Under the pieces are notes generated by a model, which had not been told where the DNA came from, did not search any database, and worked only from the letters and a program-made list of their open reading frames with translations. Both the position numbers and the translations under genes were made by a program. Shown in pieces: positions 1 through 16,500 of a stretch of DNA of 17,587 nucleotides; position 1 is the first letter of the stretch, and each line of letters opens with the position of its first letter. Source of the stretch: a virus. Taxonomy: Duplodnaviria; Heunggongvirae; Uroviricota; Caudoviricetes. The stretch lies in IMG/VR virus record IMGVR_UViG_2660238360_000004. The stretch is one strand, 5' to 3'.

Positions 1-174
1 TCAGAAAAAGATGATATTGAATCGCCCATTGAAAAACTGGAGGGCAGCGTCGCTGATCTGAATAAAAAATTGTCGGTGCTGATTCCTTCTGAAGATGAAA
101 AAAAACGCCGCGATGAGCAGTTTGCGGCGTTTTACGATTATTGCATTGAAGTTACTCTCGCAGGAATTTTGTGA
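1..174 (+). CDS. Hypothetical protein, C-terminal fragment (gene begins upstream of the window)
   Basis: Frame 1 is open from the window edge to TGA at 172-174, reading ...SEKDDIESPIEKLEGSVADLNKKLSVLIPSEDEKKRRDEQFAAFYDYCIEVTLAGIL. Codons are typical enterobacterial choices (CTG, GAA, AAA, GCG, CGC). Absent from the ORF track because it is under 60 aa. It competes with the antisense 137-aa ORF 1..414. Confidence 0.35.
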   Translation, partial: SEKDDIESPIEKLEGSVADLNKKLSVLIPSEDEKKRRDEQFAAFYDYCIEVTLAGIL

Positions 175-527
175 AGATTTTTGAGGAGGGTAAATCTCTT
201 CAGTAAGCTTAATGGCGGACGCTGCAATTAATTCAGGAAGGTCCGCAAGGTCATCTGTCAGTGGATATGATGAAAAATCGGCGGCAGTTCTGTTAAGAAG
301 CGCTTTAACTAATTCCTTTTCCTTCTCCGGCAACAAGTTGATTAGAGCTACGACTGCTTGCCTGAGTGCGATTAAATCAGCAAAAGTTTGTTTAGGTAGA
401 TTTGTGTAATCCATAGTCGCCTCTGTGTTTATCAGATTGACATCCTCCTCCCGCCAGTGCCCATCACTGGTGAGGTAAGATTTAACATATCCGGGGATTT
501 GAAGCCGATAAATCCTGATAAATATCC

Positions 528-1555
<1,028 letters not shown>

Positions 1556-1738
1556 ATTAATATTAAATCGGATTATTTTTAGCGCTGAATGTGAAATTTA
1601 AATAAAAAGGACTCTTCCATGAGTCAAAATCCTTGAAATCTTAAGGGTAAGATAAAAGGTCATTAGACAGAATGACACGTTTTATTAATAAATAAAGCTA
1701 TTGTTTCATTCGTGTGTTTTTCTTTACAAAAGTAATCC

Positions 1739-1915
1739 TTGCTATGGTTGGTTAATCATGCGTTAATGGTGTTCTGGTTTGTTACAAAATTATCTGAAGC
1801 AGTCATTGTTATAATTTTATTATTTGTACCTCTTGAGATTTCCTTGTTGGTTTTTCTCTCTGATATTTTTTTTCGGACCATTCTGCCCAAGGGCTAACTT
1901 CTTCAAAAGGTAATA
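1739..1915 (+). promoter_or_regulatory. Putative promoter and long 5' leader of the cold-shock gene
   Basis: AT-rich 360-bp intergenic region. Candidate -35 TTGCTA at 1739-1744 and -10 TTAATG about 18 bp downstream. That would give a leader of roughly 150 nt ending AAAGGTAATAATG, like the long cspA-family leaders. No transcription start data, so this is inference. Confidence 0.3.
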
Positions 1916-2131
1916 ATGATGTCTAACAAAATGACTGGTTTAGTGAAATGGTTTAACCCTGAAAAAGGTTTTGGTTTCATCACGCCGAAAGATGGTAGCA
2001 AAGATGTGTTTGTCCATTTCTCAGCTATTCAGAGCAACGATTTCAAAACGTTAACTGAGAATCAGGAAGTCGAATTTGGTATTGAGAACGGACCTAAAGG
2101 CCCCGCGGCTGTTCATGTTGTGGCACTTTGA
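1916..2131 (+). CDS. cspI: CspA-family cold-shock protein (start may be the second ATG at 1919)
   Basis: [38 protein letters not shown]... contains the RNP1-like KGFGFI and RNP2-like VFVHF motifs of the cold-shock domain. Family assignment is secure. The cspI symbol rests on the position just after the Rz-like gene as in Qin, and on recalled sequence. Confidence 0.88.
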
Positions 2132-2330
2132 GGTAGAAAATATTACAAACCATATTCACTTTAGATGCCCGTGTTGCCATGGTTCTCAGTATAGAACATC
2201 ATCTTTTGATGTTTCTGACAGGAATCCTTTCGGGGCAAAATGTATCTTTTGTAAATCAATGATGATTACATTTGATAATATTTCACAATACTTAAATGTT
2301 AGCCGTCTATCGTTAGATTTAAGAAAGTGA
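2115..2330 (+). CDS. Hypothetical small zinc-ribbon protein (CxxC...CxxC), start uncertain
   Basis: ORF 2076..2330 with the first plausible ATG at 2115, overlapping the csp stop. Contains CPCC-x20-CIFC. Many rare codons (AGA, AGG, CTA). Followed directly by an intrinsic terminator. Confidence 0.3.
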
Positions 2331-2334
2331 AAAT

Positions 2335-2360
2335 GAAGGCTCCTTCGGGAGCTTTTTTGC
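2335..2360 (+). terminator. Rho-independent terminator downstream of the csp and zinc-ribbon ORFs
   Basis: GC-rich hairpin AAGGCTCC-TTCG-GGAGCTT followed by a T-run (TTTTTT), a few nt after the stop at 2330. Confidence 0.6.
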
Positions 2361-2442
2361 TTAGTGTCTAGTCGATGGATACTCACATATTACGGTAACA
2401 TTATGAAAAAAAATAATAGTTTTTTTTAACTCTGAACCAGCA

Positions 2443-2634
2443 ATGGTAGTGCCAGTGATGACCGGAGTTAACACCATCATGCGTGAATATCCAAATGGCG
2501 AAACAACACACCTCACTGTAATGGCTGCAGGGTTTCCATCTCTGACCGGAGATCATAAAGTCATTTATGTAGCAGCGGATCGACATGTAACTTCAGAAGA
2601 AATTCTGGAAGCAGCAATGAGACTCTTGAATTGA
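2443..2634 (+). CDS. Small hypothetical prophage protein, possibly YnfN/YmcE-like (likely start at 2479, giving 51 aa)
   Basis: ORF ending at 2634; an internal ATG at 2479 gives MREYPNGETTHLTVMAAGFPSLTGDHKVIYVAADRHVTSEEILEAAMRLLN. Sits between the csp gene and the GnsB-like gene, the position ynfN occupies in Qin. The family name is from synteny and length only. Confidence 0.4.
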   Translation: MVVPVMTGVNTIMREYPNGETTHLTVMAAGFPSLTGDHKVIYVAADRHVTSEEILEAAMRLLN

Positions 2635-2751
2635 TTTGATTCTAATGCATTGATAATAAATGATAATCATCTTTATCTGTTTGTGTGAAATTTAGACCGT
2701 CGTATGTTGATTATTGCGATGTTTCATCTTATCTTTTATACGTTTGCTCCA

Positions 2752-2757
2752 TATAAT
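2752..2757 (+). promoter_or_regulatory. Candidate -10 hexamer (TATAAT) for the GnsB-like gene
   Basis: Perfect TATAAT about 50 nt upstream of the GnsB-like start. The -35 match is weak (TTATCT at about 2729-2734). Confidence 0.25.
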
Positions 2758-2806
2758 TGACACTACTGTGTACCAGGAAAGTCATAACAGACTAAAAGAG
2801 GAAATG

Positions 2807-2980
2807 ATGAACATTGAAGAGTTAAAAACAAAAACAGAAGCAGATATTTCTGAATATATAACAAAAAAAATCATTGAGCTTAAGAAAAAGACCGGGAAAG
2901 AAGTTACCAGTATCCAGTTTACTGCACGGGAAAAAATGACTGGTCTTGAAAGCTATGATATCAAGATTGATTTAATCTAG
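2807..2980 (+). CDS. gnsB: GnsA/GnsB-family protein
   Basis: MNIEELKTKTEADISEYITKKIIELKKKTGKEVTSIQFTAREKMTGLESYDIKIDLI is collinear with recalled E. coli GnsB (MNIEELKKQAETEIADFIAQKIAELNKNTGKEVSEIRFTAREKMTGLESYDVKIKIM). AAGAGG Shine-Dalgarno 6 nt upstream. The N-terminal extension in the track (from 2714) covers the promoter region and is probably not coding. Confidence 0.85.
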   Translation: MNIEELKTKTEADISEYITKKIIELKKKTGKEVTSIQFTAREKMTGLESYDIKIDLI

Positions 2981-3040
2981 TCTGTTTAGTATTAGCATCA
3001 ATTTCTCATCAGATGCTATTCAACAATACAAATTACCCAT

Positions 3041-3070
3041 AAACCTCGTTTTTACGGGGTTTTGTTATAT
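3041..3070 (+). terminator. Possible intrinsic terminator after the GnsB-like gene
   Basis: Imperfect hairpin AAACCTCG-TTTTTA-CGGGGTTT (one G-U pair) followed by a T-rich tract (TTGTTATATTT). Confidence 0.35.
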
Positions 3071-3273
3071 TTAAACATTACCGAATAGGTATAAATCTCG
3101 ATTGTCGATGGTATTGGTTGTGTGACAATACCTAGTCTTTCCGGTATGCCTGAAGAGAATACAAACGACAGATTATGTAAGGGAAACGCGCTGAATCTTT
3201 AACTCTTTCATGCTGAGTGATTTGACGTTATATTTTTAGCCGTAAGTGAAGAGCAAACGCATGGAGCGACAAA

Positions 3274-3480
3274 ATGCATAAAGATCAATACACTGATGCC
3301 CCCTCCCAGGAGCAGGTTCGTGTAAAAACTATGCTTAATAGCACCATTTCGATGGGTTACCCGGATGTTGTAATTGCATGTATAGAACATCAAGTGTCTC
3401 TGGAAGCATTCAGGGCAATTGAGGCCGCGTTAGTAAAGCACGATAAGAATACGAAGGATTATTCCCTGGTGGTTGACTGA
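3274..3480 (+). CDS. Hypothetical 68-aa prophage moron protein
   Basis: ATG preceded by GGAG 7 nt upstream. Translation [68 protein letters not shown]. No family recognised by eye. Confidence 0.45.
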
Positions 3481-3812
3481 TCACCATAACTGCTAACCAT
3501 TCTGACCATTTCACAAGTGACAGAGTCAATATCGTATTCTGTCACTGTCAGGCTAATACAGCAATGCAATTCAACTACAGCAATGCCTCGTATTTAGGTG
3601 AATTTACAATATCGTCCAGTTCGGATGCCGGCTGCATTTCTGAAGATAAGGCATTTCGGTTCTCGTATTTTCCCCTCATGCTCGTCAGTCCTGCGCGTAG
3701 TAAGAAACAGGACACTCACACTAATTTGTGTGGGCATGCTGTGATGTCCTTCTGAATTATCCCCATGCCATTATGTAAAGCTCTGTTTCAGATGCTCGTC
3801 ACGGTTGTCAGG

Positions 3813-3890
3813 CTGTCGGGTCCTCCCAGTGGGGGTCCCTGCCACGGGGCGGGAGCGTCGCGGAAAAAGGCTAGTTTTTGCATTTCCATG
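3813..3890. other. cos site (cohesive-end packaging site); putative cosN 12-nt region at 3847-3858
   Basis: CGGGTCCTCCCAGTGGGGGTCCCTGCCACG-GGGCGGGAGCGT-CGCGGAAAAAGGCTAGTTTTTGCATTTCC is collinear with the lambda cos junction as recalled (...ACGGGTCCTTTCCGGTGATCCGACAGGTTACG-GGGCGGCGACCT-CGCGGGTTTTCGCTATTTATGAAAATTTTCC). It lies about 190 bp upstream of the small terminase gene, as in lambda, and is followed by an AT-rich cosB-like segment. Confidence 0.6.
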
Positions 3891-4578: not shown

Positions 4579-6678
4579 ATGGGTTTTTCATCAGCCCGAA
4601 ATTTGGGAAGGGACATATCGGCAGGATTTTCCCCACCACGTCGCATGCCGATTTCGGAGGCTGTTAAAAAATTCATGCGTGTTCCCAAGGGGGCTGGTAA
4701 CTCGGTGCCATGGGATCCTGAACTGACACCCTACATCATTGAGCCCATGAACTGCCTGGCATCGCGTGAATACGATGCGGTGATTTTTGTTGGTCCTGCG
4801 CGAACAGGGAAGACCATTGGTCTGATCGATGGATGGATTGTCTATACCATCGTTTGCGATCCTTCGGACATGCTCGTTGTGCAGATGACCGAAGATAAGG
4901 CCCGCGAGCATTCAAAAAAGCGCCTCGACAGAACGTTCAGAAGCAGTGCGGCGGTAAAGAAAAGAATGAGTCCACGTCGTAATGACAATAATGTCCATGA
5001 TAAGACGTTCAGGGATGGCTCGTTCCTTAAAATTGGTTGGCCCTCGGTCAACATTATGTCGTCGTCGGATTACCGGTTTGTCGCCTTAACCGATTACGAC
5101 CGTTTTCCGGAGAATATCGACAGCGAGGGTGATGGTTTCTCCCTGGCCTCAAAACGTACCACCACATTTATGTCCGCCGGGATGACTCTGGTGGAGAGCT
5201 CGCCGGGACGTGACATCTGCGACAGCAAATGGCGACGTAAGTCGCCTCATGAAGCGCCACCGACGACTGGTATTCTTTCCCTTTACAATCGTGGTGACCG
5301 CCGCCGCTGGTACTGGCCATGTCCGCACTGCGGTGAATATTTTCAGCCAGCCATGGATGCCATGACCGGCTACCGTAATGAACCGGATCCCTTTAAAGCC
5401 AGTGAGGCGGCGTATCTACTTTGCCCGCACTGCAGCGGCATTATCACGGCGGAGAAAAAGCGTGAGCTCAATAGTGCAGGAGTCTGGTTGCGTGAAGGTC
5501 AGGTCATTGATTGTAACGGCAACGTTTCCGGTGAACCGCGCCGCTCCCGTATCGCCAGTTTCTGGATGGAAGGGCCAGCTGCTGCGTATCAGACCTGGGC
5601 GCAACTGGTTTACAAATTACTGACTGCAGAACAGGAGTATGAAGCGACAGGAAGTGAAGAAACACTCAGGGCGGTTATCAACACCGACTGGGGATTACCT
5701 TATCTTCCCCGCGCCAGCATGGAGCAACGAAAAAGTGAACTGCTTGAGCAGCGGGCAGAGCCAGTTCCTTCCCGCAGTGTGCCGGATGGCGTTAATTTTC
5801 TTGTGGCGACAGTGGATGTGCAGGCGGGACGTCATCGCCGTTTTGTGGTTCAGGTAACGGGCTATGGCAGCCGTGGCGAACGCTGGATTATTGATCGTTA
5901 CAACATCACGCAGTCATTGCGCGGTGACAGCGACGGGGAGAGCCAGCGAATTGATCCGGCCAGCTATCCGGAAGACTGGGATGTCCTGCTGACGGATGTT
6001 TTTCATAAAAGCTGGCCGCTGGCCTCCGATCCTTCTCAACAAATGCGACTGATGGCAATGGCGGTGGACTCCGGCGGTGAAGACGGGGTCACTGATAATG
6101 CCTATAAATTCTGGCGTCGTTGCCGTCGTGATGGCCTTGGTAAACGTATTTACCTGTTTAAGGGCGACAGCATCCGGCGCGCAAAACTGATCACCCGTAC
6201 ATTCCCTGATAACACCGGACGAACGGGCCGACGGGCGCAGGCCGCAGGTGATGTGCCGCTCTGGCTTCTTCAGACGGATGCACTGAAAGACCGGGTGAAT
6301 AACGCGTTATGGCGTGACTCGCCAGGTCCCGGCTATGTGCATTTCCCTGACTGGCTGGGGAGCTGGTTTTACGACGAACTGACGTATGAAGAGCGGAGCA
6401 GTGACGGGAAATGGAGTAAGCCGGGTCGCGGTGCCAACGAAGCTTTTGACCTGATGGTGTATGCCGAGGCTCTGGTCATTCTGCATGGATACGAAAAGAT
6501 CCGCTGGCCGGATGCACCGGAGTGGGCGAGCCGGGAAACCTGGCTGGAGTGTGTCCCGGACAGTACCGAACCGTCATCCTCACCGGAACCGGTATCCACG
6601 CCTGTTAAAAAACAAAAACGGAAGAAAACAGTAACTGACGATGTTAACCCCTGGCTGACTTCCGGAGGATGGTTATGA
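4579..6678 (+). CDS. Terminase large subunit, lambda gpA family
   Basis: 699 aa with AGGAGG Shine-Dalgarno. Walker A-like VGPARTGKT. Collinear with recalled lambda gpA, including the CPHCGE motif (WYWPCPHCGEYF) and the C-terminal EAFDLMVYAEAL (lambda EALDCFVYALAAL). Confidence 0.95.
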   Translation: MGFSSARNLGRDISAGFSPPRRMPISEAVKKFMRVPKGAGNSVPWDPELTPYIIEPMNCLASREYDAVIFVGPARTGKTIGLIDGWIVYTIVCDPSDMLVVQMTEDKAREHSKKRLDRTFRSSAAVKKRMSPRRNDNNVHDKTFRDGSFLKIGWPSVNIMSSSDYRFVALTDYDRFPENIDSEGDGFSLASKRTTTFMSAGMTLVESSPGRDICDSKWRRKSPHEAPPTTGILSLYNRGDRRRWYWPCPHCGEYFQPAMDAMTGYRNEPDPFKASEAAYLLCPHCSGIITAEKKRELNSAGVWLREGQVIDCNGNVSGEPRRSRIASFWMEGPAAAYQTWAQLVYKLLTAEQEYEATGSEETLRAVINTDWGLPYLPRASMEQRKSELLEQRAEPVPSRSVPDGVNFLVATVDVQAGRHRRFVVQVTGYGSRGERWIIDRYNITQSLRGDSDGESQRIDPASYPEDWDVLLTDVFHKSWPLASDPSQQMRLMAMAVDSGGEDGVTDNAYKFWRRCRRDGLGKRIYLFKGDSIRRAKLITRTFPDNTGRTGRRAQAAGDVPLWLLQTDALKDRVNNALWRDSPGPGYVHFPDWLGSWFYDELTYEERSSDGKWSKPGRGANEAFDLMVYAEALVILHGYEKIRWPDAPEWASRETWLECVPDSTEPSSSPEPVSTPVKKQKRKKTVTDDVNPWLTSGGWL

Positions 6679-6887: not shown

Positions 6888-8395
6888 TGGCAATTCTTGA
6901 TGATGTGATTGGCGTTTTTTCACCAGGATGGAAAGCGGCAAGGCTGCGTTCCCGTGCGGTGATCCAGGCTTATGAGGCCGTAAAAACGACGCGGACACAC
7001 AAAGCCCGACGGGAGAACCGAACTGCCGACCAGTTAAGCCAGTACGGGGCCGTGTCGTTACGTGAGCAGGCCCGTTACCTTGATAACAACCACGATCTGG
7101 TTATTGGTGTATTTGACAAGCTGGAAGAACGGGTGGTGGGGAAAAACGGGATTATTGTCGAGCCACATCCGGTATTACGCAATGGGGCCATTGCCCGTGA
7201 CCTGGCTGCGGAGATTCGCACCCGATGGAGTGAATGGTCTGTCAGCCCGGAAGTCACCGGGCAGTTTACCCGTCCGATGCTGGAACGTCTGATGCTTCGT
7301 ACCTGGCTGCGCGATGGTGAGGTGTTTGCCCAGATGGTTTCCGGGCGCATAAACAGCCTGACGCCTTCTGCCGGTGTTCATTTCTGGCTGGAGGCGCTCG
7401 AGCCGGACTTTATTCCCATGACCAGTGATGAGAGCAACAGGCTGAATCAGGGCGTGTTTGTTGATGACTGGGGGCGTCCCGAAAAATATCTGGTGTATAA
7501 AAGCCGTCCCGTATCCGGACGGCAGATGGAAACCAAAGAAGTGGATGCAGAGCGAATGCTGCATCTTAAATTTGTTCGCCGTCTGCACCAGATGCGCGGG
7601 ACGTCTTTATTGTCCGGTGTGCTGATCCGCCTCAGTGCTCTGAAAGAGTATGAAGATTCTGAGCTGACTGCAGCAAGGATCGCCGCTGCTCTGGGGATGT
7701 ACATCCGGAAAGGCGACGGGCAGAGCTATGAAGCGGATGGTAATGGCAGCAAGGATAAGGAACGCGAGCTTACCATTCAGCCAGGCATTATTTACGATGA
7801 TCTGAAACCCGGCGAAGAAATCGGAATGGTGAAGTCGGATCGCCCCAATCCTAACCTTGAAACTTTTCGTAATGGTCAGTTGCGTGCCGTGGCGGCGGGC
7901 AGTCGTCTGAGTTTTTCCAGTACAGCGCGCAACTATAACGGCACTTACAGCGCCCAGCGTCAGGAGCTGGTTGAATCCACTGATGGCTACCTGATCCTGC
8001 AGGACTGGTTTATTGGTGCCGTCACCCGTCCGATGTATCGTGCCTGGCTGAAACAGGCTGTGGCATCCGGTGTTATCAGGCTACCCCGCGATCTTGACCG
8101 TTCTTCACTGTATACCGCGGTGTATTCCGGACCGGTGATGCCGTGGATTGACCCTGTTAAGGAGGCTGAGGCCTGGAAAATCCAGATTCGTGGTGGAGCG
8201 GCGACAGAATCAGACTGGGTACGTGCTGGTGGTCGTAATCCGGATGATGTCAAACGTCGGCGCAAGGCCGAAATTGATGAAAACCGCAAGCTGGATCTGG
8301 TATTTGATACCGATCCGGCCAGTGATAAAGGAGGCAGCAGTGCCGCAACGAAACGACATGAGCCGCAGCACACCGACGACCAGTCCGAAGAATAA
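6887..8395 (+). CDS. Portal protein, lambda gpB family
   Basis: ATG at 6887 overlaps the gpW-like stop (TGATG), with GGCGAGG upstream. The C-terminal half (SRLSFSSTARNYNGTYSAQRQE...YRAWLKQAV) is collinear with recalled lambda gpB (SVFEQSLLRYIAAGLGVSYEQLSRNYAQMSYSTARAS). The track ORF from 6815 is a read-through extension of this frame. Confidence 0.9.
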   Translation: MAILDDVIGVFSPGWKAARLRSRAVIQAYEAVKTTRTHKARRENRTADQLSQYGAVSLREQARYLDNNHDLVIGVFDKLEERVVGKNGIIVEPHPVLRNGAIARDLAAEIRTRWSEWSVSPEVTGQFTRPMLERLMLRTWLRDGEVFAQMVSGRINSLTPSAGVHFWLEALEPDFIPMTSDESNRLNQGVFVDDWGRPEKYLVYKSRPVSGRQMETKEVDAERMLHLKFVRRLHQMRGTSLLSGVLIRLSALKEYEDSELTAARIAAALGMYIRKGDGQSYEADGNGSKDKERELTIQPGIIYDDLKPGEEIGMVKSDRPNPNLETFRNGQLRAVAAGSRLSFSSTARNYNGTYSAQRQELVESTDGYLILQDWFIGAVTRPMYRAWLKQAVASGVIRLPRDLDRSSLYTAVYSGPVMPWIDPVKEAEAWKIQIRGGAATESDWVRAGGRNPDDVKRRRKAEIDENRKLDLVFDTDPASDKGGSSAATKRHEPQHTDDQSEE

Positions 8396-12044: not shown

Positions 12045-12788
12045 ATGACCACACCAAATCCACTGGCAAAAACGAAAGGTGCGGGAACGACGTTCTGGAT
12101 GTACACCGGCAAGGGCGATGCGTTTGCGAACCCTTTATCGGACACTGACTGGCTGCGTCTTGCGATGGTGAAGGATCTGCAACCTGGCGAAATGACCGCT
12201 GATGCAGAAGATGACACTTATCTCGATGATGAAGATGCAGACTGGAAAACGACAACCCAGGGGCAGAAATCCGTCGGTGATACTTCGGCGACGCTGGCCT
12301 GGCGTCCGGGTGACAGCGGACAGAAAAAACTGGTTCAGTTGTTCGACTCCGGTGAAGTCTGCGCGTTTCGTATCAAATATCCCAACGGCACTGTTGATGT
12401 TTTCCGTGGCTGGCTGAGCTCACTGGGTAAAACCATTGCCTCAAAAGACGTGATGACCCACACAGTGAAAATCAGCGGTGTGGGGCGTCCGTATCTGGCA
12501 GAGGAAGGCACTGAAACAGTGAGCGTTACCGGGCTGACGGTGGCACCGGCATCTGCCAGTGTAAAAGTGGGAGCAACCACCACGCTGACCTTTACAGTAA
12601 AACCTGACGGAGCCAGTGACAAAGCGATCAGTGTGCATTCGACAGATCCACAGACTGCCACGGTGACCCTGAACGGGCTTGTGGCCACGGTGAAAGGCGT
12701 GAAGCAGGGCAGTGTCAGCATTGTGGGCATGACTTCTGACGGCGATTTTGTGGCAGTGGCTGCGGTGGCTGTCAGCGCCGCAGGTTAA
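12045..12788 (+). CDS. Major tail protein, lambda gpV family, with C-terminal Ig-like domain
   Basis: AAGGAGG 5 nt upstream of the ATG at 12045. [36 protein letters not shown]... is collinear with recalled lambda gpV ([48 protein letters not shown]). C-terminal Thr/Val-rich Ig-like region. Confidence 0.95.
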   Translation: [247 protein letters not shown]

Positions 12789-12808
12789 CAGGACGATACT
12801 CATCATTT

Positions 12809-12832
12809 GCCCCGGTTATCCGGGGCTTTTTT
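12809..12832 (+). terminator. Intrinsic terminator (or attenuator) between the major tail gene and the tail chaperone genes
   Basis: Perfect 7-bp GC hairpin GCCCCGG-TTAT-CCGGGGC followed by TTTTTT, 20 nt after the gpV-like stop. Confidence 0.6.
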
Positions 12833-12848
12833 GCAGGTGGAGAACATG

Positions 12849-13235
12849 ATGTTTCTGAAACAGGGCACGTTTAATTATGAAAAGCAGTCCGTGGTGCTCA
12901 GTGAGCTGTCCGGGCTGCAGAGAATTGAATATCTGGCGTTTGTTCAGCAGCGAACGGCAAAGTTTGATGCCGAAGAGGGAGAACTGCCGGAGGCTGAACG
13001 ACAGATTGCTTTTCTGCGGATGGGGATGGATATCAATGCCTGGCTGGTTTCCCGCTCACTGTGGAATGCGGAACAGTCTCAGGATGTTGAGACGCTTTGC
13101 GCATCCGTTATTACAACATGGTCGTATGATGCCCTGGGAGCGGGGGCGGAGATGGTTCTGTCGCTGAGCGGTATGGGAGCCATTGAGAATGCCGGGGATT
13201 TGGAGCATGAGGTGCTGACGCCGGAAAAGTCCTGA
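12849..13235 (+). CDS. gpG-like tail assembly chaperone (start 12846 or 12849)
   Basis: MFLKQGTFNYEKQSVVLSELSGLQRIEYLAF is collinear with recalled lambda gpG (MFLKTESFEHNGVTVTLSELSALQRIEHLAL). GGTGGAG upstream of the ATG. Confidence 0.85.
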   Translation: MFLKQGTFNYEKQSVVLSELSGLQRIEYLAFVQQRTAKFDAEEGELPEAERQIAFLRMGMDINAWLVSRSLWNAEQSQDVETLCASVITTWSYDALGAGAEMVLSLSGMGAIENAGDLEHEVLTPEKS

Positions 13236-13573
13236 CGCGGGAAATGCAGTTTGTCATGCGGCTTGCCCGGGAGTTCAGGCGGGCAGACTGGCGGCGGATG
13301 CTGTCGGAAATGTCGGCCACTGAGCTTGGTGAGTGGGGCGATTATTTCCGGATGCAGAGCTTCAGTGATGTGTGGATGGATGCGCAGTTTGCCTCGCTGA
13401 AGGCATTGATCGTGAGAATGGTGTCCGGCAGCAGTGATGCTGCGGTGGCTGATTTCAGCCTTTTACCGGAAGAGAACGGGATACCGGAGCGAACGGACGA
13501 AGAACTGATGCATCTTGGGGAAGGTATTTCCGGAGGTGTGCGTTATGGACCAGATAGCCAACCTGGTCATTGA
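13223..13573 (+). CDS. gpT-like segment, expected to be made only as a G-T fusion after a -1 ribosomal frameshift near 13223-13229
   Basis: The -1 frame relative to the gpG-like gene is open from 13211 to 13573 and overlaps the end of that gene. It has no convincing start of its own until the ATG at 13244. The heptamer GGAAAAG at 13223-13229 sits where lambda has its G-T slippery site (GGGAAAG). Confidence 0.65.
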   Translation, partial: GKVLTREMQFVMRLAREFRRADWRRMLSEMSATELGEWGDYFRMQSFSDVWMDAQFASLKALIVRMVSGSSDAAVADFSLLPEENGIPERTDEELMHLGEGISGGVRYGPDSQPGH

Positions 13574-16500
13574 TTTGGGGATTGATGCGGCAGAGTTTAA
13601 AAATGAAATTCCCCGTATCAAAAACCTTCTGAATGGTGCAGCCAGCGATGCAGAACGGTCTTCTGCCCGTATGCAGCGTTTTATGGAGCGTCAGACTCAG
13701 GCCGCCCGGCAGACAACGCAGGCGGCGTCTTCGGCTGCAACAGCCGCATCCGTCCATGCGCAGACGGTGGAGAAGAACGCACAGGCTCATGAACGCATGG
13801 CCCGCGAGGTGGAGAAAACCCGCCAGCGTATGGAGGCACTGAGCCAGAAAATGCGCGAGGAACAGGCGCAGGCCATGGCTCTGGCGGAGGCTCAGGATAA
13901 AGCAGCTGCTGCGTTTTATCGTCAGATTGACAGTGTGAAACAGGCCAGTGCGGGGCTGCAGGAATTACAGCGTATTCAGCAGCAGATCCGACAGGCCAGA
14001 AACAGTGGCGGGATTGGTCAGCAGGATTATCTGGCGCTGATTTCTGAGGTTACGGCGAAAACCCGTGTTCTTACGCAGGCTGAGGAAGAGGCTACCCGAC
14101 AGAAAGTGGCGTTTATCCGTCAGCTTAAAGAGCAGGCAACCCGCCAGAATCTTTCTTCTTCTGAGTTGCTTCGTGCTAAGGCTGCCCAGCTGGGGGTAAG
14201 CAGTGCTGCAGAAGTGTATATCCGCAAAATGGAGCAGGCAGGAAAAGCCACGCATTCGCTGGGTCTGAAAAGTGCAGCGGCCCGCCAGGAGATAGGCGTT
14301 CTGATAGGTGAACTGGCCCGCGGCAATTTAGGGGCGCTGAGGGGATCCGGGATAACGCTGGCTAACCGTGCCGGATGGATAGACACTCTGATGTCACCGA
14401 AAGGCATGATGCTTGGCGGGGTTATTGGCGGTATTGCCGCGTCCGTCTATGGTCTGGGTAAAGCCTGGTATGACGGTCAGAAGGAGGGGGAAGAATTTAA
14501 CCGCCAGTTGTCGCTGACGGGGCATTATGCCGGAGTCACTGCCGGGCAGCTGTGGACGCTCAGTCGTGCTATTTCCGGGAATGGTATCACGCAACATGCT
14601 GCAGCCGGTGTGCTGGCTCAGGTGGTGGGGAGTGGTGCATTTCGTGGAAACGATATCGGTATGGTGGCGAGAGCTGCCGCACAGATGGAGCGATCGGTTG
14701 GCCAGTCGGTCAGCGATACCATAAATCAGTTTAAGCGGCTGAAGGATGATCCTGTAAATGCCGCGAAGGCTCTGGACAATGAGCTGCATTTTCTTACTGC
14801 CACTCAGCTTGAGCAGATACGTGTCCTTGGGGATCAGGGACGGTCCAGTGATGCTGCACGGATAGCCATGTCTGCACTGGCAGAGGAAACCGGTCGGCGT
14901 ACTGCGGATATTGATAATAACCTCAATGCGCTTGGCAGTACGCTGAAGTATCTGTCTGATTTATGGAGTCGTTTCTGGGATGCGGCCATGAATATTGGTC
15001 GTGAAGACTCGCTGGATGAACAGATTGCCGCTTTACAGGAGAAAGTGTCGCGGGCGAAAAGACTCCCCTGGACGGCATCATCTTCTCAGGTTGAATACGA
15101 TCAGCAGCGTCTTAACGATCTTCAGGAGAAAAAACGCCAGAAGGATTTGCAGGATGCAAAAGAGCAGGCAGAGCGGAATTATCAGGAGCAACAGAAACGA
15201 CGTAATGCTGAAAATGCTGCACTGAACCGGATGAATGAAACGGAAGCAGCACGACATCAGCGTGAAATTGCGCGTATTAATGCCATGCAGTACGCCGATC
15301 AGGCTGTCAGGGATGCAGCGATACAACGTGAAAATGAACGTTACGAGAAAGCCCTGGCATCCGGTAAGAAAAAAACACGCGAAACCCGTAATGATGAGGC
15401 CACCCGGTTATTGCTGCAGTACAGTCAGCAACAGGCACAGGTGGAAGGACAGATTGCTGCTGCAAGACAGTCAGCAGGCATTGCCACTGAAAAGATGACA
15501 GAAGCGCATAAACAGCTTCTGGCTCTGCAGCAGCGCATCAGCGATCTGGACGGGAAAAAACTGACGGCAGATGAAAAGAGTGTGCTGGCCCGTAAAGATG
15601 AACTGATTCAGGCACTGACGCTGCTGGATGTAAAACAGCAGGAGCTTCAGAAACAGACGGCACTCAACGATCTGAAGAAAAAAACAATTCAGCTGACCAG
15701 TCAACTGGCTGAAGAAGAGCTCGCTCAGCGTCAGCAACATGACCTGGATATCGCCACGGTGGGTATGGGTGATCAGCAGCGGCAGCGATATCAGGTACAA
15801 CTGAGTCTTCGCCAGAAATACCAGCAACAGCTGGAGCAGTTGAGGCGGGATAGTGAGCAGAAAGGGACATATAACACGGATGACTACAGAAAGGCCGAGC
15901 AGGCGCTGACGGAGAGCCTGAACCGACAACTGAATGAGAATCGCCGTTACTGGCAACAGCTTGAAGTTGTGCAGGGTAACTGGAAAAACGGAGTCCTGCG
16001 TGCATTTCAGGATTTTACCGTGGATGCAGACAATACGGCAGGAACAGCAGAACAGGTGTTCTCGTCAGCCTTCAGCAACATGGGAAATGGCCTGGCAACT
16101 TTTGTCACTACCGGCAAACTCAACTTCAAATCCTTCACCTCTTCGGTGCTGTCAGATATGGCGAAAATCCTGGCGCAGGCAACCATGATGAAATCGATAA
16201 AAGGGATTGGCAGTGTACTGGGATTTGATCTCAGCAGCCTTTCCCTGAATGCCAATGGGGGGATTTATCAGTCTGCTGATTTGAGTCGTTACAGTGGCAC
16301 GGTGGTTAACCGTCCGACGTTTTTTGCTTTTGCAAAAGGCGCGGGTGTGATGGGGGAAGCGGGACCTGAAGCCATTCTGCCACTGCGTCGTGGTGCTGAC
16401 GGTAAGCTGGGGGTTGTGGCGGATATTGGTGGTTCAGGTATGGCGATGTTTGCCCCGCAGTACAACATCGAGATCAATAACGATGGCACGAACGGGCAGA

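Follow-up and report, generated by a model that had tools for sequence, protein, structure and literature searches.

The left end of this viral DNA raises a simple question: why should a lysis cassette begin with its endolysin? The window, by which we mean the whole stretch of DNA analysed (17,587 nucleotides), carries 527 bases before the lysozyme gene, and these hold two ORF readings on opposite strands and no holin. The initial annotation of this sequence offered two explanations, a holin lying further upstream behind a YdfR-like spacer gene as in Qin, or something inserted or degenerate at this place, and elements of both apply. We give a probability of about 0.8 to the reading that positions 1-527 are the right part of the holin-lysozyme spacer of a Qin/2H10-type lambdoid E. 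coli prophage, where a fusion of a YdfR-family gene with a second ORF, A, meets a moron-type antisense gene, B, and both are frameshifted. The window's frameshifted forms are called A' and B' below, and the features of the region are as follows.

1-174, plus strand: last 57 codons and stop of the YdfR-family::A fusion ORF (A'); matches phrog_2091 positions 117-168, E 9.5e-27
1-154, minus strand: out-of-frame read-through tail of B', 51 codons (SNFNAIIVKRRKLLIAAFFFIFRR...), antisense to A and absent from the 86-aa alleles
98-133, minus strand: terminator-like hairpin of B, AAAACGCCGC, a 12-nt loop, GCGGCGUUUU and U8; -14.1 kcal/mol
155-156, no strand: CT insertion (CTC to CTCTC) seen in alignments, directly before B's TAA and inside A's ACT CGC codons
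157-414, minus strand: the 86 native codons of gene B, for an acidic protein with three predicted helices; phrog_2572
420-424, minus strand: AGAGG, Shine-Dalgarno of B, 5 nt ahead of its ATG (414-412)
452-527, plus strand: remnant of the ydfR 3' end (about 452-477) and the standard ydfR-lysozyme intergenic leader, without a Shine-Dalgarno; from the junction alignment
484-512, minus strand: candidate weak sigma-70 promoter of B in a conserved block, -35 TTTATC (512-507), 17-nt spacer, -10 TATGTT (489-484)
528-1061, plus strand: lysozyme of the rrrQ type, Phage_lysozyme (PF00959, E 5.3e-25), annotated rrrQ in sister genomes
1058-1555, plus strand: rzpQ, Rz-like, DUF2514 (PF10721, E 1.9e-38)
1251-1505, plus strand: Rz1-like lipoprotein ORF embedded in rzpQ, with a lipobox-like LTSC; K-12 rzoQ is nested in rzpQ likewise

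Gene order at the left edge of the window

The two ORFs of 1-527 are as they were first described. On the plus strand, a frame that is open from the left edge reaches a TGA stop at 172-174 and has the C-terminus ...CIEVTLAGIL; on the minus strand, an ORF of 137 aa starts at the ATG 414-412, has AGAGG (reverse complement of 420-424) before it, and ends in a TGA, the reverse complement of 1-3. We also agree that the plus strand of this region lacks a transmembrane ORF: over all plus-strand frames of 1-527 the highest 19-residue Kyte-Doolittle mean is 1.20, compared with 1.62 for the holin of E. coli HS, and by this measure no small ORF before the endolysin contains a transmembrane-grade segment. 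The lysozyme ATG at 528 is preceded only by ...cctgataaatatcc, and a purine-rich Shine-Dalgarno is absent, as the initial annotation had remarked.

The genes that follow are familiar ones. The lysozyme has an Ala/Ser-rich N-terminal segment. Within rzpQ, the ORF at 1251-1505 lies in the +1 frame relative to rzpQ and encodes 84 aa; we take it as the Rz1/RzoQ equivalent, so that a spanin pair is present. A cold-shock gene stands directly 3' of the lysis genes, as in Qin, and the sole match in an Rfam scan of the window falls there, outside 1-527: a cspA thermoregulator (109.8 bits, 1761-2177, plus strand) that covers the leader and the coding region of the cspI-like gene at 1916-2131. The large terminase ORF is intact in the window (699 aa, 4579-6678).

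The first 1100 bases of the window were searched against complete E. coli genomes, and matches were counted when they covered at least 80% of this length. There are 290 such genomes, the best of them 99.6% identical. Over 1-527, E. coli HS and the phages 2H10 and PhiR63_1 are 99.2-99.6% identical to the window. The order in HS is essQ (a class II holin gene of 216 bp), a YdfR-family gene, a hypothetical gene of 86 aa on the opposite strand, rrrQ, rzpQ and cspI; window position 1 corresponds to position 8001 of the HS locus, and the holin gene occupies 7433-7648. The viable phages 2H10 and PhiR63_1 share this order and encode a 183-aa "YdfR family" protein. In L015, an assembly with the exact window allele, the sequence could be extended leftward, and it encodes a 173-aa DUF1327 protein ending in ...CIEVTLAGIL, identical to the end of the window's plus-strand ORF. 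Immediately before it stands the C-terminus (50 residues) of a class II holin, and this holin ends about 350 nt left of window position 1. In the sister loci a YdfR-family gene thus lies between class II holin and lysozyme genes, and for the window's own lineage the holin side is read in L015.

Judged from these alignments, the holin sits off the left edge, some 350-570 nt left of the window, and it appears absent only because the window begins to the right of it. The first of the two original explanations, with its appeal to the Qin order of essQ, ydfR and rrrQ (which is indeed the order in K-12 Qin), is borne out. It had been added that a nearby holin with a lysis-cassette spacer gene would make the arrangement ordinary and the minus-strand ORF spurious; the holin and a YdfR-family spacer are just upstream, but the second part fails, because the first 86 codons of the minus-strand ORF encode a conserved family.

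Some properties of the compared assemblies should be kept in mind. Most of L008-L015 (GCA_0014129xx-0014137xx) consist of contigs joined by N10, with breaks 19-83 bp left of window position 1, which shows that those genomes contain the ydfR/holin stretch more than once. Owing to these joints, unrelated chromosomal genes stand next to the prophage, and gene calls made across them, such as a 423-aa ORF in L009 (6401-7672), are artefacts. The HS prophage copy (L001) is defective, with IS1 and truncated genes on its left arm (1593-3850) and a large terminase gene that a deletion has fused to the tail-tip gene (12563-15585).

The fusion ORF, its antisense partner and their module

The plus-strand ORF of the window is the end of a longer protein. 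The 183-aa protein of HS matches phrog_2091 over 1-183 (E 8.1e-112), and its residues 1-112 match DUF1327 (PF07041) with E 2.6e-42 and 143 bits, far above the gathering cut-off of 25 bits that we used as the criterion for membership in this Pfam family. This part is followed by an extension of about 70 aa, A, which ends in ...EVTRRNFVKIFEEGKSLQ and the stop. DUF1327 had been named at the outset as a family against which to compare the ORF: the portion upstream of the window matches it, whereas the 57 in-window residues alone give no DUF1327 match in Pfam, the domain being off-window. In the reading that we favour, the YdfR-family gene has lost its stop codon and runs on into the small ORF A (about 70 codons). 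PGAP labels the HS gene a YdfR pseudogene "missing C-terminus", and such labels conceal a widespread 183-aa fusion protein that is encoded by at least 1000 contigs and occurs in viable phages. Fusions of 169, 183, 211 and 243 aa were found.

A also exists without YdfR. At least 393 E. coli contigs carry a 67-aa form (MNPEEMN...KSLQ) that begins 4 nt past the stop of the holin gene; of the four loci displayed, two have a called B gene antisense to this form, and the overlap is 53 bp. In Salmonella prophages with a different holin and a GH19 lysin, A is a 73-aa ORF that follows the DUF2514 gene; there the overlap with B is 59 bp, and the genes for DUF1441 and terminase come after B. A has a strongly hydrophilic composition (GRAVY -1.03), and its conserved core, KKRRDEQFAAF...RNF.K...KS.Q, corresponds to the hairpin and the antisense of B's tail.

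The hairpin begins 18 nt past B's normal stop, or 20-23 nt past it in the Salmonella and metagenome lineages, and on the plus strand it encodes A's KKRRDEQFAAF motif. Its position is kept in three diverged lineages, with one compensatory change of G-C to A-U and a single G-U pair; as six of ten pairs are invariant, the covariation is not significant (161 of 500 shuffles). The strong U tract is found in the E. coli hairpin only. Our promoter and terminator consensus scan allows loops of at most 8 nt, hence it missed this hairpin with its 12-nt loop.

These features bear on whether A is a functional domain at all. YdfR function could end at about residue 114, and the extension would then be read-through over B's 3' end and terminator that has been kept open by chance or by constraint on the other strand. 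Such an origin is a serious possibility, although we think it unlikely. It would agree with the PGAP pseudogene flag in HS, with the antisense position of A's last 17 residues relative to B, and with the exact coincidence of KKRRDEQFAAF and the hairpin, in which the compensatory change alters the peptide (RRD to RHH, AAF to VAF) and the base pair is kept. In E. coli the N-terminal half of A has an omega of about 0.4-1.2, no better than that of other frames; in Salmonella, however, this half has an omega of 0.39, the lowest of the six frames. Furthermore, A has an ATG of its own and an open frame of 67-73 codons, the ATG lying either 4 nt past the holin stop or overlapping the stop of the Rz-like gene, in two diverged lineages, its polymorphism (15 nonsynonymous and 9 synonymous variants) is close to that of B, and the abundance of the 183-aa form in contigs and its presence in viable phages also argue for a functional A.

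The A/B pair is missing at this place in K-12 Qin and H-19B (H19); HS, 2H10 and the window have it as an insert at the ydfR stop. HS-type loci have a ydfR 3' end at both junctions of the insert, and the matches of B-less phages to the window begin at 452 or 477. In many Stx-type phages the pair lies directly after the holin gene, in Salmonella prophages after the Rz-like gene, and it is present in PhiR12 as well. B is antisense to the late genes in every locus, with a tail-to-tail overlap of 53-59 bp with the late-strand ORF. Because A is found alone or fused, and the pair at different positions, the pair constitutes a portable module of about 0.5 kb. The second of the original explanations, that something is inserted or degenerate here, thus has its counterpart in this two-ORF module at the ydfR stop and in a 2-bp frameshift.

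Other occupants of the same slot were seen. Stx2_12E129 (L007 2450-3417) has the N-terminus of A fused to a different 150-aa C-terminal part and carries an unrelated 104-aa antisense gene (phrog_1853), which was rejected as a homologue of B (hhalign E 0.54); the hairpin persists there without B beside it. Stx1_14040 (L006 2195-3497) has a 263-aa YdfR fusion and then 510 bp without a called gene. By these comparisons, the holin-lysozyme junction of Qin- and Stx-type phages is a mosaic recombination hot spot.

Late transcription in lambdoid phages is antiterminated by Q. The antiterminated late transcript would read the holin gene, ydfR::A, across antisense B, and then lysozyme and Rz, and B would probably be transcribed independently in the opposite direction. 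Its invariable antisense orientation, its invariable 3' overlap and the portability of the module make B look like a moron-type accessory gene, and its product may be a small, acidic protein of three helices that is located in the cytoplasm and works through binding to another macromolecule.

A and B could instead be a functional two-part system for lysis timing, an antisense safeguard against leaky expression of the lysis genes, or a toxin-antitoxin or defence-like pair, with the overlap and hairpin as its regulatory core. A and B do occur together in three lineages and at three positions, always tail to tail over 53-59 bp, with the hairpin between them and the module inside a lysis cassette. 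This co-occurrence could, however, follow from the physical overlap of the two ORFs alone, and B has been inactivated repeatedly with no compensating change seen. Since neither protein has a membrane segment or a match to a toxin-like family, and a PADLOC match is absent, we consider a two-part system improbable.

A recent report describes binding of K-12 YdfR to the catalytic half of RNase E and, possibly, to RNA (PMC13232886). This report gives the plus-strand gene a possible role, though nothing ties RNase E to B, and it makes the holin-lysozyme slot a cheap target for knock-outs. Either the A/B overlap and hairpin might be an antisense control element in the lysis cassette, in which case transcribing B in the lysogen could lead to silencing or processing of leaky transcripts that run from holin to endolysin, or the B protein might act with YdfR::A on RNase E. 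Both versions are long shots; if one were true, it would represent a new kind of regulator of lysis or prophage stability. The findings themselves give no sign of a new principle, and the moron-type reading of B is the one that we carry forward.

The 86-codon gene and the two-base insertion

The first 86 codons of the minus-strand ORF differ by one residue from the HS protein, and B matches phrog_2572 over 1-86 of 86 positions (E 4.4e-53). Exhaustive and profile searches found full-length homologues of 89-93 aa and 38-55% identity in Salmonella enterica and metagenomes, and an AAGGA equivalent to the Shine-Dalgarno is conserved in the distant homologues. Among E. coli alleles about 9% apart, the B frame has a pN/pS of 0.34-0.55 and no stops; an equally low pN/pS is seen only in the wobble-linked antisense frame, which contains a stop. 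Over 57 haplotypes, the variant types in B are 20 nonsynonymous and 12 synonymous. B is an acidic protein (pI 4.6), and AlphaFold2 models it as three helices with moderate confidence (pLDDT 71.6). The first helix, TFADLIALRQAVVALINLL, has a 19-residue hydropathy of 1.62, equal to the value of the HS holin; it contains D, R and Q, and it reads as amphipathic, not membrane-spanning.

Relatives with a known function were sought by several routes. Scans of A, B and their variants with Pfam, NCBIfam and PADLOC returned nothing significant for A or B, a sequence-profile search of the PDB with B gave no match, and Foldseek comparisons of the B model with BFVD and PDB gave best E-values of 1.7 and 3.9, which are not significant. 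AcrIIC4, the top Foldseek match, was for this reason rejected as a fold relative. We also rejected the DUF1823 label that B carries in the PhiR12 and PhiR5 records (E 0.13, 12.9 bits against a 25-bit cut-off) and, as spurious matches, P0025 and long repeat proteins from the exhaustive search for relatives. A genome contig scan for B found one E. coli locus and one weak Chloroflexi match (L116 3001-3159, MAG DUEH01000032.1; tblastn to B residues 5-62 at 40% identity), which is probably due to chance and whose E-value is relative to the candidates only. In the literature on YdfR, DUF1327, DUF1823 and lysis-cassette morons we found no description of A or B.

With a candidate weak promoter, the AGAGG Shine-Dalgarno, its 86 codons and the hairpin with U8, B has the look of a complete gene unit. 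In the candidate promoter, TTTATC and TAT..T are invariant across the E. coli, metagenome and Salmonella loci; TTTATC-N17-TATGTT agrees with the consensus at 7 of 12 positions, below the threshold of the promoter consensus scan, which gave nothing for B. The block is also present in B-less H-19B-type loci, and it may serve the lysozyme leader instead of B. A segment of about 25 nt at 503-527 (also at L019 1195-1260 and L025 4861-4925) contains two TTTATC copies 10 nt apart, GATATTTATCAGGATTTATCGG in the sense of B. It lies directly before the lysozyme ATG and accompanies B into Salmonella prophages where no lysozyme follows, and H-19B-type loci without B have it too; an antisense promoter and a binding site for a protein are two possible roles.

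Could the minus-strand ORF nonetheless be wholly spurious, an open antisense frame over a non-coding spacer of which only the plus strand is functional? The initial annotation expected this if a holin lay near. The absence of Pfam and NCBIfam matches and of a consensus promoter would be in keeping with it, several annotators of sister phages left B uncalled, and antisense frame +2 has a similar pN/pS, its wobble positions coinciding with those of B. But drift of the DNA would not hold a chance frame open in homologues of the same length at 38-55% identity, and the Shine-Dalgarno, ATG, stop position and downstream hairpin are all conserved. B has its own PHROG family, phrog_2572, and is exactly 86 codons long in 69 of 74 viral contigs. 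We consider a spurious ORF very improbable, and comparative evidence gives good support for the first 86 codons as a real small gene. The gene appears to be dispensable, because it has been lost repeatedly and independently: among the IMG/VR loci L035-L114, four haplotypes have lost the start through ATG to ACG (equivalent to window 411) and one has a Gln to stop change (equivalent to window 358). For one of the ATG to ACG alleles, the annotation uses another start and gives a 127-aa protein.

The remaining 51 codons of the window's ORF have another origin. At 155-156 the window reads GTTACTCTCGC where HS has GTTACTCGC, a gain of two bases. B's TAA is the reverse complement of 152-154, so that the insertion on the minus strand reads as GAG-AG-TAA, and both A and B are frameshifted by it. 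A' ends in ...EVT-LAGIL and a stop in place of ...EVT-RRNFVKIFEEGKSLQ and a stop, which replaces the last 15 residues of the plus-strand protein with LAGIL; the normal stop would be at 204-206. In the intact allele of HS, the minus-strand ORF stops after 86 codons (...QNSCE), and A and B converge with a 53-bp overlap. The two ORF readings, which were initially held to be mutually exclusive, are in intact alleles convergent and overlap only by these 53 bp. It was correctly seen that the minus-strand ORF looks protein-like for about 80 aa and unnatural thereafter: the switch comes exactly after residue 86, at the site of the TAA in most related loci, and the unnatural FFFIFRR tail arises because the CT insertion extends the minus-strand ORF by 51 codons antisense to the plus-strand gene. 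As judged from the allele alignments, these 51 codons are not native protein.

The frequency of the alleles was taken from an IMG/VR viral contig scan, which gave only sequences at least 95% identical and is thus fit for allele counts, not for diversity. Of 74 contigs, 69 have the 86-aa form and four the 137-aa form of the window, a minority allele; the 183-aa partner is encoded on 62. The window's own 137-aa product is WP_159420128.1, present in exactly this form on 22 contigs from NCBI, Logan and ENA sources; its entry is best annotated as a real 86-aa gene that a frameshift has fused to antisense read-through. These 22 contigs and the four independent IMG/VR contigs make it hardly credible that the CT insertion arose as an error of sequencing or assembly and that the window truly has the 86-aa and 183-aa pair, even though the insertion is a length change in a dinucleotide repeat and all eight assemblies listed share the accession range GCA_0014129xx-0014137xx and WGS prefixes beginning with JRR or JRS.

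The insertion, put down to CT slippage at 155-156, abolishes B's stop and rewrites the end of A. B' would read 51 codons through its own candidate terminator to a stop at 3-1, about 95 nt past the U tract. Terminated transcripts would have no stop codon, so the window's allele of B is probably null, that is, non-functional. Taken together, the arrangement is largely ordinary: a Qin/2H10-type lysis region, an already catalogued, uncharacterised antisense gene, and a lineage-specific frameshift. The main value of the analysis is in annotation, with the missing holin explained by the start of the window and an uncharacterised antisense gene placed in the holin-lysozyme slot of more than 1000 E. 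coli contigs and of viable phages.

Comparison with known systems

K-12 Qin (essQ-ydfR-rrrQ-rzpQ/rzoQ-cspI) is the reference for the gene order. The window's lysozyme, DUF2514 and csp genes are ordered as rrrQ, rzpQ and cspI, and a YdfR-family gene lies between holin and lysozyme in both. Unlike the fusion described here, ydfR of Qin encodes 103 aa and has a stop that overlaps the rrrQ start, and Qin has neither the A extension nor B. The closest relatives are 2H10, PhiR63_1 and HS, which have the holin, the 183-aa YdfR::A protein, antisense 86-aa B, lysozyme and RzpQ in common with the window and differ from it by the lack of the CT insertion: their A ends in ...RRNFVKIFEEGKSLQ and their B stops after 86 codons.

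The layout of A and B can be compared with two known kinds of units. The type I toxin-antitoxin locus txpA/ratA has convergent transcripts that overlap at their 3' ends. The A/B pair is similar in that its two units converge and share tens of nucleotides at their 3' ends, around a hairpin common to both; in contrast to such loci, both A and B look protein-coding, neither is a small hydrophobic toxin, and the PADLOC defence and toxin-antitoxin models match neither of them nor their variants. The lambda gene bor is a moron that lies antisense beside lysis genes. Bor is a lipoprotein, whereas B has no signal peptide or lipobox; B further differs from the lambdoid morons in that it overlaps a late-strand ORF and in that its promoter is only a candidate. 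A moron is defined as an independently expressed insert in a phage operon (definition quoted in PMC2629481). B resembles the lambdoid morons as an extra insert between late genes that is present in some relatives and absent from others, is encoded opposite to late transcription, and comes with a ribosome-binding site and a terminator-like hairpin of its own.
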